Shown: positions 1,685 to 20,142, numbered from the stretch's first letter. The stretch: 64,000 bases of DNA from an uncultured bacterium (GCA_963977015.1 CAXBMO010000003.1:384001-448000); one strand, 5' to 3'. Numbers and translations: made by a program. The notes: generated by a model not told the origin, from the sequence alone.

Positions 1685-3226
1685 ATGTCCAAAGCAGTCA
1701 AAAACGCGGTTTCACCAGCGCGAGGTGAAGATTTTCCAGAGTGGTATCAGCAAGTGATTCGGGCTGCCGACCTTGCCGAGAATTCAGAAGTACGAGGCTG
1801 CATGGTCATCAAACCGTGGGGATACGGGCTTTGGGAACAAATGCAGCAGAAACTGGATCGGATGATCAAGGACACCGGCCATGTGAACGCCTATTTCCCG
1901 CTCTTGATCCCACTGAGCTATTTGGAGAAAGAGGCTGAACACGCCGAAGGTTTCGCGACCGAATGCGCGGTCGTCACTCATCATCGATTGGAAGCGGAGA
2001 AGCAGGACGACGGGACGACGAAGATGATTCCGACCGGAAAACTGGCTGAGCCCTATATCATTCGCCCCACCTCAGAGACCATCATTGGAGCTGCCTATGC
2101 ACGATGGGTGCAGAGCTATCGCGATCTCCCGATTTTGATCAACCAATGGGCCAACGTGATGCGTTGGGAAATGCGCCCCCGCATGTTCTTGCGCACCACC
2201 GAATTTCTTTGGCAGGAAGGCCACACCGCTCACGAAACGAAGGAAGAGGCAATCGAGGAAGCGGAGAAAATGCATGAAGTCTATGAAACCTTCATGCGGG
2301 AATATTTGGCCATCCCAGTGATTCCCGGCGAAAAATCGGAGGCAGAACGCTTTCCGGGAGCCGATCGCACGCTGACCGTTGAGGCAATGGTTCAGGATCG
2401 AAAGGCGATTCAGGCAGGGACATCTCATTTTCTTGGCCAGAATTTCGCCAAGGCCGCAGGAATCGAATTTCAAGGCCGTGACGGTAAGAAGGAACACGCC
2501 TGGACCACGAGTTGGGGAGTGACGACCCGAATGATCGGCACGGTCATCATGGCCCATGGCGATGACGACGGTGTTGTCCTGCCTCCTCGTCTGGCGCCAC
2601 AACAGATCGTAATTCTTCCCATCATTCCCAAGGAAGAACATCGCGGCGCAGTTTTGGAAGCCGCTGAGAGCTTTGCCGCGAAACTCCGGGATCAAGCGGC
2701 TTGGGGAGAAGGACTTCGCGTCCACATTGACAGTCGTGATTTGGGTGGAGGAGCCAAAAATTGGGAATGGATCAAAAAAGGCGTCCCGGTTCGGATTGAA
2801 ATCGGTCCTCGCGATCTCGAGAAAGGAACCGTGGCGATCGCGCGACGCGACAAGGGAGCCCAGGAGAAAGACTTCGTGAAGATGGAGGACGCCATCACCC
2901 AACTTCCTGAAACGCTCAAGGAGATCCAGGACGGCCTTTTGCAGCGAGCTCTCGAATACCGGGAAGAACATACCCGAAAGATCGATACTCTTGAGGAATT
3001 CCGGGCGTTTTTCACGGCTGAGAACCCCGACAAGCCCGAGATCCATGGTGGTTTTGCCCTCGCCCACTGGGGAGGAACAGCGGAGGATGAGGAGAGACTG
3101 GCCAAAGAGATGAAAGTGACCATTCGCTGCATTCCGAACTCAGACGAGTTGGGTGGTGAACCCGGGGTCTGTTTCTACACCGGAAATCCAAGTCAACGCC
3201 GACTGGTTTTCGCAAAATCCTATTGA
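1685..3226 (+). CDS. proS: Proline--tRNA ligase (archaeal/eukaryotic type)
   Basis: DFPEWYQQVI, IRPTSET, QWANVMRWE, FLRTTEFLWQEGHT, QAGTSHFLGQNF and C-terminal FAKSY. Confidence 0.97.
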   Translation: MSKAVKNAVSPARGEDFPEWYQQVIRAADLAENSEVRGCMVIKPWGYGLWEQMQQKLDRMIKDTGHVNAYFPLLIPLSYLEKEAEHAEGFATECAVVTHHRLEAEKQDDGTTKMIPTGKLAEPYIIRPTSETIIGAAYARWVQSYRDLPILINQWANVMRWEMRPRMFLRTTEFLWQEGHTAHETKEEAIEEAEKMHEVYETFMREYLAIPVIPGEKSEAERFPGADRTLTVEAMVQDRKAIQAGTSHFLGQNFAKAAGIEFQGRDGKKEHAWTTSWGVTTRMIGTVIMAHGDDDGVVLPPRLAPQQIVILPIIPKEEHRGAVLEAAESFAAKLRDQAAWGEGLRVHIDSRDLGGGAKNWEWIKKGVPVRIEIGPRDLEKGTVAIARRDKGAQEKDFVKMEDAITQLPETLKEIQDGLLQRALEYREEHTRKIDTLEEFRAFFTAENPDKPEIHGGFALAHWGGTAEDEERLAKEMKVTIRCIPNSDELGGEPGVCFYTGNPSQRRLVFAKSY

Positions 3227-17648: not shown

Positions 17649-18851
17649 TTACCGCATCGCCCAATCCAACTCAGATGCCTCGATGGGAGCGGGTTCCGGG
17701 TATTCGAAGGTCTTGCCCTCGAAATTGCGGATGATCACACGCTCTTCGTTGCGCTGAATCACGGTTTCCGGGTTCATCGGCACTTTTCCACCGCCGCCAG
17801 GCGCATCGATTACGTATTGCGGAACGGCATAACCCGTGGTGTGCCCACGAAGTCCGCTGATGATCTCAAGTCCCTTGGAAACGGGCACGCTGAGGTGCGA
17901 AGAGCCTTTAATCAGGTCCAATTGGTAGAGATAATAAGGCCGGACCCGGCAGCGAAGCAGCTTGTGAACCAACGTCTTCATGACCTCCAACCGATCGTTC
18001 ACCCCGCGCAAGAGGACACTTTGATTTCCAAGAGGAATTCCGCTGTTGGCAAGCCGCTCCAACGCCTCCTTCACTTCCAACGTCAACTCCCGGGGATGAT
18101 TGACGTGAACGCTGATGAACAATGGGTGATGCTGCTTCAGCATCTCGCACAATTCGGGCGTGATCCGTTGAGGAAGAAAAACCGGAACGCGCGAGCCGAT
18201 GCGGACAAATTCGATGTGCTCAATGCTTCTGAGCCGCCGGAGAATTTTCTCCAATTTCGAGTCACTCAGCAAAAGTGGATCGCCCCCTGAAAGTAGAACG
18301 TCGCGAACTTCAGTGTGTTCTTCGAGGTAACGGAAAGCCGCTTCAAATTGGGTGTCGAGATGCTGTTCCCCGGCACCACTGACGACCCGGCTTCGGGTGC
18401 AATAGCGGCAGTAGCTGGCACAACGATCGGTCACCAGAAAATTGACACGATCCGGATAGCGATGCACCAACCCCGCAACCGGCATGTCTCCATCCTCGCC
18501 ACAGGGATCCTCCATTTCATAGTCGGCTTCCCAGGTTTCTTCGATTCGGGGAATGACTTGGCGGCGAATCGGACAATTGGGATTGTCCTTATCGATCAAA
18601 TTCATGAAGTGGGGCGTAATGGCCATCGCCAGCTTGTTCCCACTCAGGATCACCCCGCTCCGCTCTTCATCGGTGAGATTCAGATGTTCTTCGAGGGCGC
18701 CCAGCGATGTAACACGGTTTTTTTGCTGCCAAATCCAGGAATTCCAATCTTCTTCGGCGACTTTCCGGTCAGCCCAATAGCCCGGAGCGTAAGATGTGAA
18801 GTCCCTTTCGGGAACCGTTGCGTCAAAGGTCATAGATGCGGTCAGATTCAA
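17649..18851 (-). CDS. KamA family radical SAM aminomutase (lysine 2,3-aminomutase-like)
   Basis: GLVHRYPDRV, CASYCRYCTR, VRDVLLSGGDPL, NQSVLLRGVND, PYYLYQ and PLP-lysine motif DAPGGGGKVP. The start may be ATG 18833. Confidence 0.92.
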   Translation of the reverse strand: MNLTASMTFDATVPERDFTSYAPGYWADRKVAEEDWNSWIWQQKNRVTSLGALEEHLNLTDEERSGVILSGNKLAMAITPHFMNLIDKDNPNCPIRRQVIPRIEETWEADYEMEDPCGEDGDMPVAGLVHRYPDRVNFLVTDRCASYCRYCTRSRVVSGAGEQHLDTQFEAAFRYLEEHTEVRDVLLSGGDPLLLSDSKLEKILRRLRSIEHIEFVRIGSRVPVFLPQRITPELCEMLKQHHPLFISVHVNHPRELTLEVKEALERLANSGIPLGNQSVLLRGVNDRLEVMKTLVHKLLRCRVRPYYLYQLDLIKGSSHLSVPVSKGLEIISGLRGHTTGYAVPQYVIDAPGGGGKVPMNPETVIQRNEERVIIRNFEGKTFEYPEPAPIEASELDWAMR

Positions 18852-18878
18852 TTCGGACTCTGAACAAGAAAAAAGCTT

Positions 18879-18906
18879 ACGGTAGGAGGTACCATTGGGG
18901 TGTCAA
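18879..18906 (-). promoter_or_regulatory. Sigma70-like promoter of the kamA-family gene
   Basis: Minus strand TTGACA(18906-18901)-N16-TACCGT(18884-18879). Confidence 0.6.
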
Positions 18907-18944
18907 CCATCACCTCAACACTTGCCGTATGACAAAAGTACCAG

Positions 18945-18972
18945 TTGCAGCCCGCCCGGTGATGCCTAAGAT
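18945..18972 (+). promoter_or_regulatory. Sigma70-like promoter of the structured RNA and small protein
   Basis: TTGCAG-N16-TAAGAT, with the same spacing as other promoters here. Predicted +1 is about 18979-18981, at the start of the RNA's closing stem. Confidence 0.6.
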
Positions 18973-18980
18973 CCCTCCTA

Positions 18981-19172
18981 GCATCAGGAGTGGTGCTGCG
19001 GTGAGTGATAAGCAAACTGCGGCATCCGGCAACCTGGCATGGAGAAGCCAAGGTGCCTTGGAAGCTGAAGGGAACTTCAGTCTCCGATGTGCGGAACTGA
19101 TTTGCCGGATTTCGGCACGTCAGCCGAACAGCAATTCTCCGCCGGAAGAATCTCCGGACATGTTCCTGATGC
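18981..19172 (+). ncRNA. Candidate structured cis-regulatory RNA / riboswitch (unrecognised family)
   Basis: Closing helix GCATCAGGAG (18981-90) / TTCCTGATGC (19163-72) encloses six hairpins with several G-U pairs and a GGAA tetraloop. No credible ORF covers it. Confidence 0.65.
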
Positions 19173-19213
19173 GGTGAACGAATGAAACTTCAACCGACAT
19201 CGCATCAACTATC

Positions 19214-19456
19214 ATGAATCAGACAGTCATTGAGTCCGATCAGGGAAGACCGGCTCTTCCAACACCCAAACTCAGCGTGAGGGTGAATTCCGAGAACGAG
19301 AATCACCACCTTTGGAACAACCGGGGAACCTGGTGGTGCCATTTCACCGTCCACAAAGCCGATTATACCACGGAACGCATTCGCTTGAGCCTCAAGACCC
19401 GCAGTTTGGAGGAAGCCCGGAACCGGCGGGATCGCGTTTTTGCCGGCTTGGGCTAG
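19214..19456 (+). CDS. Small basic protein resembling an integrase arm-type / DUF6538-like nucleic-acid-binding domain
   Basis: HHLWNNRGTWWCHFTV...ERIRLSLKTRSLEEARNRRD gives a beta-beta-beta-alpha pattern like integrase N-terminal domains; no catalytic domain follows. Confidence 0.65.
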   Translation: MNQTVIESDQGRPALPTPKLSVRVNSENENHHLWNNRGTWWCHFTVHKADYTTERIRLSLKTRSLEEARNRRDRVFAGLG

Positions 19457-19551
19457 CACCATTGCTGCCGGCGCGATCGCGTTTCCGCTTGAAATGTGAT
19501 CAATTCTGAGTTGGTAAGTCTGCCGCGGAAAGCACCCCGCGCAGAAATATC

Positions 19552-20142
19552 ATGGCTGAAGTGAATTCGACGTTTGAACTCAGGCGGGGCGCCATTGCGC
19601 CGGACTTCGAGCTTCCCGAAGGCGGAGCAAAGAAAAAGCATTCCCTTGAAGATCTTGCCGAGGGAAAATCGGCAATCGTCATTCTGTTTGCCTGCAACCA
19701 CTGTCCGTATGTGGTCCACCTGGCCGATTATGTGGGAGAGTTCGCCGATGAATACGCGAAGAAGGGTGTTCAGTTCGTCGCCATCAATTCCAACGATGCC
19801 AAAAAGTATCCGGATGATGCTCCCGAGAAGATGAAGGAGTTTTCCAAGGCGCACGACTGGAACTTCCCCTACCTATTCGATGAGGACCAGAATGTGGCCA
19901 AGTCCTACTCCGCAGCCTGCACGCCGGATTTCTATGTCTTCAACCAGAATCTGGAATTGACCTACACTGGACAGTTCGACAATTCGCGGCCCGGCAATTC
20001 AGCGCCCATCACTGGTGCCGATCTGAGAACGGCTCTTGAGTCCACCCTTCGAAACGGAAAAGCAGACTCCGTGCGCATGCGCCCAAGCAGCGGATGCAAC
20101 ATCAAATGGAAAAAGGGCAACGAACCCGCCTATTTCGGCTAA
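19552..20142 (+). CDS. Thioredoxin-family protein (AhpC/TSA, peroxiredoxin-like)
   Basis: APDFELP, CNHCPYV, AINSND...YPDD, ACTPDF and GCNIKW. Confidence 0.9.
   Translation: MAEVNSTFELRRGAIAPDFELPEGGAKKKHSLEDLAEGKSAIVILFACNHCPYVVHLADYVGEFADEYAKKGVQFVAINSNDAKKYPDDAPEKMKEFSKAHDWNFPYLFDEDQNVAKSYSAACTPDFYVFNQNLELTYTGQFDNSRPGNSAPITGADLRTALESTLRNGKADSVRMRPSSGCNIKWKKGNEPAYFG

Follow-up and report, generated by a model that had tools for sequence, protein, structure and literature searches.

A divergent SAM-I/IV-type aptamer and its probable role as a translational switch in front of a conserved mini-protein gene

A structured leader at the head of a small gene

The plus strand of the window (the whole stretch of 64,000 nucleotides that was analysed) carries a structured RNA between a promoter-like sequence and the gene of an 80-aa protein. 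The features of this element and its surroundings are collected in Table 1. The 80-aa protein gene is the only one that is clearly controlled by the leader. The Redoxin/AhpC-TSA gene that follows it is possibly co-transcribed, and a simple scan found no terminator-like site between the 80-aa gene and position 19800. Elsewhere, this neighbour was seen only at a locus of the same genus (L003/L025).

Table 1. Features of the leader and its surroundings, in window coordinates
Feature	Position	Strand	Basis or remark
ATGACA box (TATGACA 18928-34)	18929-18934	+	10 nt upstream of the -35 element
Promoter-like TTGCAG-N16-TAAGAT	18945-18972	+	read in the sequence; position conserved
SAM-I/IV-type aptamer, whole domain	18978-19144	+	RF01725 32.3 bits; model R1 116.2 bits; covariation
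P1 5' strand GCAUC	18981-18985	+	pairs with 19086-90 GAUGU; cmscan alignment
J1/2 AGGAGU	18986-18991	+	
P2, straight hairpin without kink-turn internal loop	18992-19026	+	MFE fold, 11 continuous pairs
P3, conserved internal loop GGCAACC / AAGGUGCC	19028-19057	+	
L3 GGAGAA, PK-2 5' strand	19041-19046	+	
P4 hairpin in four-way junction, GGAA loop	19060-19085	+	
P1 3' strand GAUGU	19086-19090	+	
P5 hairpin 3' of P1	19092-19126	+	MFE fold, relatives
Linker AACAGCAA after P5	19127-19134	+	
PK-2 3' strand UUCUCC	19135-19140	+	complementary to L3 19041-46
Small hairpin CCGGA/UCCGG between aptamer and switching sequence	19142-19157	+	MFE fold
Putative anti-P1 switching sequence UUCCUGAUGC	19163-19172	+	pairs with 18981-90
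Putative sequestor hairpin, 19167-76 UGAUGCGGUG with 19198-207 CAUCGCAUCA	19167-19207	+	-16.7 kcal/mol; ends 6 nt before AUG
Controlled gene, 80-aa protein	19214-19456	+	19 invariant columns among 17 sequences
Redoxin/AhpC-TSA family gene, 96 nt downstream of the 80-aa gene	19552-20142	+	Pfam Redoxin E 3.2e-21

An initial annotation had read the region 18981-19172 as a multi-stem RNA held together by a closing helix. The minimum free energy (MFE) fold contains this helix, in which 18981-90 (GCAUCAGGAG) pairs with 19163-72 through nine Watson-Crick pairs and one G-U pair. It also reproduces the hairpins drawn at 18992-19026 (11 bp, three of them G-U), at 19028-57 with the loop AUGGAGAA, at 19058-87 with its GGAA loop, and at 19142-57. 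In place of the two further hairpins at 19091-105 and 19111-28, both the fold and the relatives indicate a single extended one (19092-19126). The plus strand folds far better than chance: its MFE is -92.3 kcal/mol, compared with -63.8 +/- 4.45 kcal/mol for 200 dinucleotide-shuffled controls, none of which was as good (z -6.40). The minus strand folds at -81.5 kcal/mol (z -4.70). As explained below, the proposal that the 19214-19456 gene is preceded on the plus strand by a riboswitch-type leader acting in cis stands, although the interpretation of this leader as a possibly undescribed RNA does not.

The promoter noted at the same time, TTGCAG at 18945-50 and TAAGAT at 18967-72 with 16 nucleotides between them, is present in the sequence, but it was not called by a simple consensus scan, which returned no promoter site in 18500-19800. 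Its position is conserved: a sequence of the form TTGnnn-N16-18-nAnnnT ends 6-9 nt before the first base of P1 in 28 of the 31 related loci, and in 18 of these 28 the -10 element reads TAnnnT. This conservation of position makes a transcription start at about 18979-81 plausible, and the leader would thus begin about where the promoter is predicted to start transcription. A search for sequencing runs that contain 18800-19600 listed five DNA runs with the stretch or part of it, three of them with at least half of the sampled words, and no RNA run.

Relatives, covariation and class of the RNA

No family was reported at its gathering score when the whole 64-kb window was subjected to a default Rfam scan. 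A permissive scan of 18700-19500 yielded a match of 18976-19110 to the SAM-I/IV family RF01725 that covers the model completely, from position 1 to 99 of 99, with 32.3 bits and E 0.0036; beside it, two more matches of the same clan were suppressed. The default scan is blank because the window copy, with 32.3 bits, stays below the RF01725 gathering cut-off of 41.1 bits, which is an operational criterion and not a structural one. The window copy is the single RF01725 match in the whole 6.9-Mb genome, and no RF00162 match was found in that genome at E <=1. In the RF01725 alignment the core motifs GCAUC, AGGAG, CCGGCAACCUGGC, GCCAAGGUGCC and GAUGU are intact, and long insertions occupy P2, the stretch from P3 to the P1 3' strand and the part following P1. 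The low score is thus due to the long P2, P4 and P5 insertions and not to changes in the core.

Relatives were collected in several ways. A DNA search produced matches in 20 of 61 genomes (the genome of the window and 60 relatives), centred on window positions 19019-19097. When 20 related loci were scanned with Rfam, 17 matched RF01725, seven of these 17 with scores that reach the cut-off (41.5-47.5 bits); one (L013) scored best against RF00162 with 28.3 bits, and two gave no match. We also built a covariance model, R1, with 138 positions and 26 pairs from 19 sequences, the structure being specified by us. It detects the window copy with 116.2 bits over 18978-19144. Among 80 loci fetched via the downstream protein it found the aptamer in 16, four of which duplicate loci already collected, and one further copy cut by a contig end; among 151 genomes sampled across the phylum, the genome of the window included, seven carry it. 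In total there are 37 distinct copies (the window copy and 36 others), all of them with an R1 E-value <=3e-9, and it is by R1 that the orthologues above the RF01725 cut-off are joined to the window copy. The initial annotation had seen no match to SAM riboswitches and had considered the RNA possibly undescribed. Both statements have to be withdrawn in view of the full-length RF01725 match, the seven of 17 relatives above the cut-off and an architecture equal to that published for SAM-I/IV RNAs. The Rfam search suggested at that time as a check on novelty is blank only at the default setting; the SAM-I/IV match together with the orthologues above the cut-off removes the novelty of the RNA.

Conservation with covariation, a sign of function that had been called for, is present in the homologous loci. 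In the alignment of the 37 sequences, which was fitted to our own model and so favours the structure, 97.3% of cells are standard pairs, and changes on both sides occur in 16 of the 26 pairs (113 cells). The observed values for pairing and compensation were reached by none of 500 shuffles, a count that is not to be read as a probability since the sequences are related. Sliding the 3' partners by one to three columns brought pairing down to 21-48%. The covariation is carried by P2, P4, P5 and three pairs of P3. Compensatory changes are found at all six modelled pairs of P2 and at all three modelled basal pairs of P5; the basal pairs of P4 covary as well, with 85.6% of cells paired, and the P3 column pairs 55-85 and 62-80 switch in six distant copies. 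P1 and most of P3 hardly vary and thus contribute little covariation of their own: 99.5% of P1 cells are paired, and its outer pair is G-U in 34 copies and A-U, G-C and U-A in one copy each. Despite unrelated sequences, the P2, P4 and P5 segments form hairpins with the expected ends in 31/31 copies. For the pseudoknot PK-2, a Watson-Crick complement of at least 5 nt exists between L3 and the tail in 36 of the 37 copies, and at these two places no fewer than nine different combinations of complementary sequences are used.

The core of the SAM clan is likewise present, with A-U and U-A pairs in P1, a J1/2 with GAG and a P3 internal loop GGCAACC/AAGGUGC. Its motifs are mostly invariant among the 19 sequences and the remainder is conserved in at least 90% of them, and the core pairs are kept in 37/37 copies. 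Among the ligand contacts that a structural account of the env87 riboswitch names are P1 U4, J1/2 G8 and P3 A25 (PMC8525861), which correspond to U18984, G18988 and A19031 here. By this equivalence of positions, the three nucleotides are candidate ligand contacts. In the 19-sequence alignment A19031 is invariant and G18988 is conserved in at least 90%, and U18984 is paired as U-A in all 37 copies.

The arrangement of helices agrees with SAM-I/IV. The construct of the env87 aptamer crystal structure 4L81, as printed in PMC5393176, runs from P1 through J1/2, P2, P3, P4, P1', P5 and an A-rich linker to the PK-2 strand. The element in the window has the same order, with a J1/2 ending in GAG and a straight P2, as well as the same core nucleotides, and its orthologues pass the family cut-off. 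In the comparison drawn in the SAM-IV paper (PMC6890682), SAM-I/IV RNAs are distinguished from SAM-IV by an unsplit P2, the lack of PK-1, a P4 helix and a PK-2 that is joined with the stem-loop P5; the variants between SAM-I and SAM-IV described by Weinberg et al. 2010 (PMC2864571) have no P2 internal loop and are mostly metagenomic. In the window, P2 consists of 11 continuous pairs and is a plain hairpin in 31/31 copies, P4 (19060-85) is also present in 31/31 copies, P5 lies at 19092-126, and PK-2 joins 19041-46 with 19135-40; PK-1 was judged absent by inspection only.

The two parent classes fit less well. SAM-I (the S-box, RF00162) shares the four-way junction P1-P4 and the ligand-pocket motifs, but its P2 contains a kink-turn, and its P2 loop forms a pseudoknot with J3-4. 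The element here has neither, and possesses P5 and PK-2; with its straight P2 and no RF00162 match in the genome at E <=1, it is not a member. A P5 hairpin 3' of P1 and a PK-2 that joins the P3 loop to the 3' tail are common to the element and SAM-IV (RF00634). However, SAM-IV as described in PMC6890682, which reports its cryo-EM structure, has PK-1, a split P2 and no P4, whereas P4 is present and conserved here and P2 is unsplit, which places the element outside this class too. Differences from other SAM-I/IV RNAs are the far greater lengths of P2 (35 nt), P4 (26 nt) and P5 (35 nt), the unknown mini-protein as cargo, and an expression platform that appears to use the P1 5' strand and its copy at the start codon. 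The RNA at 18978-19144 is therefore one of an already known class and in itself ordinary; what deserves attention is its unstudied cargo and the ATGACA box. Still, a verrucomicrobial branch of SAM-I/IV is missed as a whole by default Rfam annotation because long insertions in P2, P4 and P5 lower the score. The RF01725 seed alignment could be extended by the 37 collected sequences.

The controlled mini-protein and its neighbourhood

A relative of the 19214-19456 protein is encoded by the next gene in 35 of the 37 aptamer copies; twelve of the 37 were found via the protein itself, and of the 24 that a DNA or RNA search alone had detected, 22 are followed by its gene. The two exceptions are L109 and L016, which has a gene for a MoxR-like AAA protein in this place. 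At one locus of the same genus (L004) the mini-protein frame is present and contains no in-frame ATG. The genome of the window has one copy of the mini-protein gene, and it is the only riboswitch cargo there. A literature search on SAM riboswitches in Verrucomicrobia, Opitutus or Akkermansia and on DUF6538 returned no description of this pairing, the supplements of Weinberg et al. 2010 aside, which may already list verrucomicrobial examples.

The protein has a core of the form HHLWNNRGTWWCHFTVH...RIRLSLKTR...EARNRRD. Over 55 residues, 19 positions are invariant among 17 sequences, and the mini-protein is thus under clear constraint. The genome collection contains at least 585 loci with such a gene, and nearly all of the best 80 carry Verrucomicrobiota taxon names. 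In a library of 1.84 billion proteins there are 1011 clusters; the best 150 of these 1011 are all 68-141 aa long, and every named match is a 'hypothetical protein'. The cargo of this riboswitch is a free-standing, highly conserved mini-protein without annotated function that is found across Verrucomicrobia.

The window protein matches DUF6538 (PF20172), a domain found at the N-terminus of integrases, with 16.9 bits (E 0.0049). A weak match of this kind is obtained for 17/17 members at E <=0.1, the best at 2.2e-5, all of them below the Pfam cut-off of 27 bits, and the mini-protein may at most be a remote DUF6538 relative. PF20172 has no match in the genome of the window. The 17 members matched none of the PHROGs families, NCBIfam gave nothing meaningful for the mini-protein, and a search for longer relatives found only four, none with an integrase domain. 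In the AlphaFold prediction, a disordered N-terminus precedes three strands (33-36, 39-47 and 53-59) and a helix (65-79), and the mean pLDDT is 76.7. Searching the PDB with Foldseek found no structure at E <=0.001, and the best hit of a wide VIA-align search (Z 4.3) is not above noise. The predicted three beta strands and one helix match the N-terminal arm-binding domain of lambda integrase (1z1b_A) weakly, with Z 4.2 and an rmsd of 3.2 over 47 residues, which is no higher than the values for unrelated PH domains; unlike that domain, the mini-protein is free-standing. The scores for a second lambda integrase N-domain match, 2wcc (Z 3.5), and the AP2 domain 2gcc (Z 3.6) do not exceed those of unrelated folds either.

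For the genomic neighbourhood, only Pfam-checked clusters were used, the ORF clusters being noisy from spurious long ORFs. Of the 80 fetched loci, 63 have the mini-protein gene without the aptamer. Directly upstream of it on the same strand, 36 of the 63 carry a gene for a PLP enzyme of Cys/Met metabolism, and in ten of the 63 a tRNA with the anticodon CAU follows the mini-protein gene. At one aptamer-bearing locus (L014), the gene that follows is metK. When 20 riboswitch-less mini-protein loci were scanned for other known riboswitches, none was found, only tRNAs and one SRP RNA. These links tie the mini-protein to methionine/SAM biology without revealing its activity. A riboswitch reveals which metabolite is relevant to its cargo. 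The mini-protein is connected with SAM and methionine by genomic associations of three independent kinds, which provides a concrete handle on its function.

Alternative pairings, competing readings and the ATGACA box

The helix between 18981-90 and 19163-72 had initially been taken as the closing stem of one static structure. It and the aptamer helix P1, formed by 18981-85 and 19086-90, both need 18981-85; they exclude each other, and the former is best read as the anti-P1 helix of the ligand-free state. The anti-P1 duplex amounts to -16.9 kcal/mol, against -5.5 kcal/mol for P1 alone. When 18978-19235 was folded with anti-P1 enforced, -99.8 kcal/mol was calculated; with P1 enforced and the pseudoknot strands left free, the value was -96.4 kcal/mol, before the contribution of PK-2 (-8.8 kcal/mol) or the ligand. 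According to these calculations the ON-like and OFF-like folds are nearly isoenergetic, a balance such as a switch needs.

The pairings suggest the following mechanism. With SAM absent, 18981-90, which comprises the 5' strand of P1 and J1/2, would pair with 19163-72; the region before the AUG would then be single-stranded and the protein would be made. With SAM bound, P1 and PK-2 would lock the aptamer and set free 19163-76, of which 19167-76 could pair with 19198-207, a mimic of the P1 strand lying 6 nt before the AUG at 19214; ribosome loading would thereby be blocked. In this tidy design CCUGAUGC would choose between the P1 5' strand and its copy at the start codon. No Shine-Dalgarno sequence precedes the AUG at 19214, and the sequestering of the ribosome-binding region is thus an assumption.

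The elements required by such a switch recur in the relatives: the start codon is closely preceded by a GCAUCA-like copy of the P1 strand, and the CCUGAUG motif of the anti-P1 strand occurs as well. Of the 37 copies examined, 28 could be scored for a duplex between the anti-motif and the start region; it reaches -10 kcal/mol or better in 23 of them, and the mean over the 28 is -12.6 kcal/mol, compared with -6.9 +/- 2.7 kcal/mol for shuffled start regions. The outer anti-P1 pair is changed on both sides in L017 (U:A) and L038 (A:U), in each case together with the P1 partner, and these two events, both at one pair, are the only compensatory ones in the anti-P1 helix. Many relatives have an intrinsic terminator containing a second CCUGAUG copy at the place of the 19142-57 hairpin of the window. 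The window copy and its genus are without this module, and a simple scan of 18500-19800 returned no terminator. We infer that SAM represses translation here and that transcriptional control has been added in other lineages. Taken together, it is very likely that 18978-19144 is a divergent SAM-I/IV riboswitch aptamer that, driven by the promoter at 18945-72, forms the 5' end of the mRNA of the 80-aa protein and most likely acts as a translational OFF switch. SAM as the ligand and the direction of regulation are the parts of this reading that are deduced, from the class and from the pairings.

Three other explanations have to be weighed. A new riboswitch or structured non-coding RNA, with 18981-90/19163-72 as the closing stem of a single static fold, would agree with the lack of any Rfam family at gathering score in the window and with the presence of this helix in the 192-nt MFE fold (z -6.4). 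It is scarcely credible in view of the full-length SAM-I/IV match, the orthologues above the RF01725 cut-off and the conserved pseudoknot and junction of the SAM-I/IV architecture; moreover, the helix and the conserved P1 exclude each other, and for the 3' strand of the helix there is another conserved partner at the start codon. It is also improbable, if to a lesser degree, that a SAM-I/IV riboswitch acts mainly on transcription, through Rho-dependent termination or RNA decay, or that it is a decaying relic, with the sequestor being incidental. Such a view could draw on the intrinsic terminators around the CCUGAUG motif in many relatives, on the loss of the terminator from the window copy and on the mini-protein frame without an in-frame ATG in the same genus. 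However, the sequestor pairing with the GCAUCA mimic is conserved from the genus to distant families of the phylum and is strong in the window (-16.7 kcal/mol), and the mini-protein is under clear constraint.

A changed ligand is the third possibility, and a slim one: a SAM-I/IV-derived aptamer might recognise SAH, a SAM-related metabolite or a compound unrelated to sulfur metabolism. Variant subclasses with new specificity have arisen in other riboswitch classes. Typical cargo of SAM riboswitches are methionine/SAM genes, and a cargo that is none of these, namely an uncharacterised mini-protein in 35/37 copies, leaves room for such a change. The metK gene of the same genome has no riboswitch and thus no leader of this kind; it adjoins a gene for a regulator with an ArsR-HTH and a methyltransferase domain. 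The window copy and most of the family also score below the RF01725 cut-off. Against this, no core motif of the SAM clan has been lost, the low score comes from the P2, P4 and P5 insertions while the core is unchanged, and the cargo family is itself linked to methionine/SAM by metK in L014 and by the PLP enzyme in 36/63 loci.

Starting from a SAM-sensing translational switch, a two-tier circuit can be imagined, which we consider unlikely. The riboswitch would sense SAM, and the 80-aa output, made only at low SAM and with its predicted strands and helix resembling an integrase arm-binding domain, would be a nucleic-acid-binding regulator that acts on the ATGACA box upstream of its own promoter (autoregulation) or on methionine-linked targets. 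Such a circuit is compatible with the mini-protein being the sole riboswitch cargo of this genome, with the place of riboswitch-less relatives between a Cys/Met PLP enzyme gene and a tRNA(CAU) gene, with metK following in one relative, and with an ATGACA box confined to loci that have both riboswitch and mini-protein. If this were true, a domesticated integrase-arm domain would take part in SAM/methionine homeostasis across Verrucomicrobiota.

In 30 of 31 loci the ATGACA box precedes the aptamer, at a distance of either 48-50 or 58-61 nt. These two distance classes differ by one turn of the helix, the -35 element being fixed. It is also present in four of five distant loci that have the mini-protein, and is missing at the two aptamer loci with other cargo (L016 and L109). 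At the 63 riboswitch-less mini-protein loci the box was not found, ten of them having ATGACA elsewhere. It is thus a conserved upstream element that accompanies only the pairing of riboswitch and mini-protein. We considered whether ATGACA could be the start of a leader ORF running through the aptamer; this was rejected, as its distance to the aptamer varies (48, 49, 50, 58, 59 and 61 nt) and no frame is kept. A general promoter element was rejected as well, with TATGACA occurring 197 times in the genome as against about 557 expected. The composite of ATGACA and -35 element has only six occurrences in the 6.9 Mb of the genome, and neither metK, metH nor the Cys/Met PLP gene of this genome has an ATGACA box upstream. 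In Akkermansia-type loci, ATGACA lies 54 nt before the HHLW codon, at the place where the start codon falls (checked in L075).

Sequence elements flanking the riboswitch

The box upstream of the riboswitch promoter (see the table) is kept, as ATGACA, in 30 of the 31 aptamer loci, where it lies either 48-50 or 58-61 nt ahead of the aptamer. It was found neither at mini-protein genes without a riboswitch nor at the two riboswitch copies of the same type that carry other cargo. Downstream of these copies lie a gene for a MoxR-like AAA protein (L016) and one for an unknown 144-aa protein (L109), respectively.

On the other side of the aptamer, a conserved GCGGAGC-like stretch follows UUCUCCA directly past the PK-2 3' strand (L005, L007-L012, L043 and others). 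Local pairing between this stretch and the PK-2 strand may be feasible and would give a possible anti-pseudoknot hairpin. In the window, its place is taken by the hairpin at 19142-57.

Coordinates of features in the window and its own genome
Feature	Sequence	Position	Strand	Remark
TATGACA box	window	18928-18934		10 nt 5' of the -35 element
Lysine 2,3-aminomutase-like radical SAM gene	window	17649-18851	minus	LAM_C, E 2.2e-23
metK locus (L112)	G000, contig C47	2968-5070

Gene neighbourhoods of the mini-protein

The radical SAM gene is divergent to the riboswitch promoter in the window, and such a neighbour is also present in the same-genus locus L025. In L004, another locus from the window's genus, the mini-protein frame (oriented positions about 450-710) has no in-frame ATG; an ATG at the conserved position is out of frame. 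The cause is a frameshift or, alternatively, a mistake in the assembly. Two riboswitch and mini-protein units (L019 and L023) were observed in a single genome, G051; their mini-proteins differ in their C-terminal extensions (109 and 153 aa).

A second conserved small reading frame, with the motif P.NF..WP..M..R(Y/F), lies 17-141 nt past the mini-protein stop in 21 of the 34 riboswitch-type loci, duplicates included (among them L005, L006, L008-L011, L013, L015, L038, L043, L053, L056, L060, L067, L070, L080, L086, L098 and L102). Of the 64 loci classed as lacking the riboswitch, L095 alone has this frame, and L095 carries a truncated aptamer. The frame was not found anywhere in the genome of the window.

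The riboswitch-less loci (L027-L097), which have the mini-protein gene around locus position 3000, account for 63 of the best 80 mini-protein loci out of at least 585. In 36 of these 63, a gene for a 489-aa Cys/Met PLP enzyme lies directly 5' of the mini-protein gene, an order seen in Luteolibacter, Haloferula and Roseibacillus-type genomes, and in 10 of the 63 a tRNA with the anticodon CAU lies directly 3'. Akkermansia-type loci have, upstream, a gene from one particular cluster; its member in L075, the one checked, matches ribosomal protein L28.

metK and metH in the genome of the window

The metK gene of this genome is without a riboswitch. Its divergent partner encodes a 314-aa protein that combines an ArsR-type HTH with a SAM-methyltransferase domain, an architecture known from SahR-type regulators. 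AT-rich palindromes are found 5' of both metK and metH.
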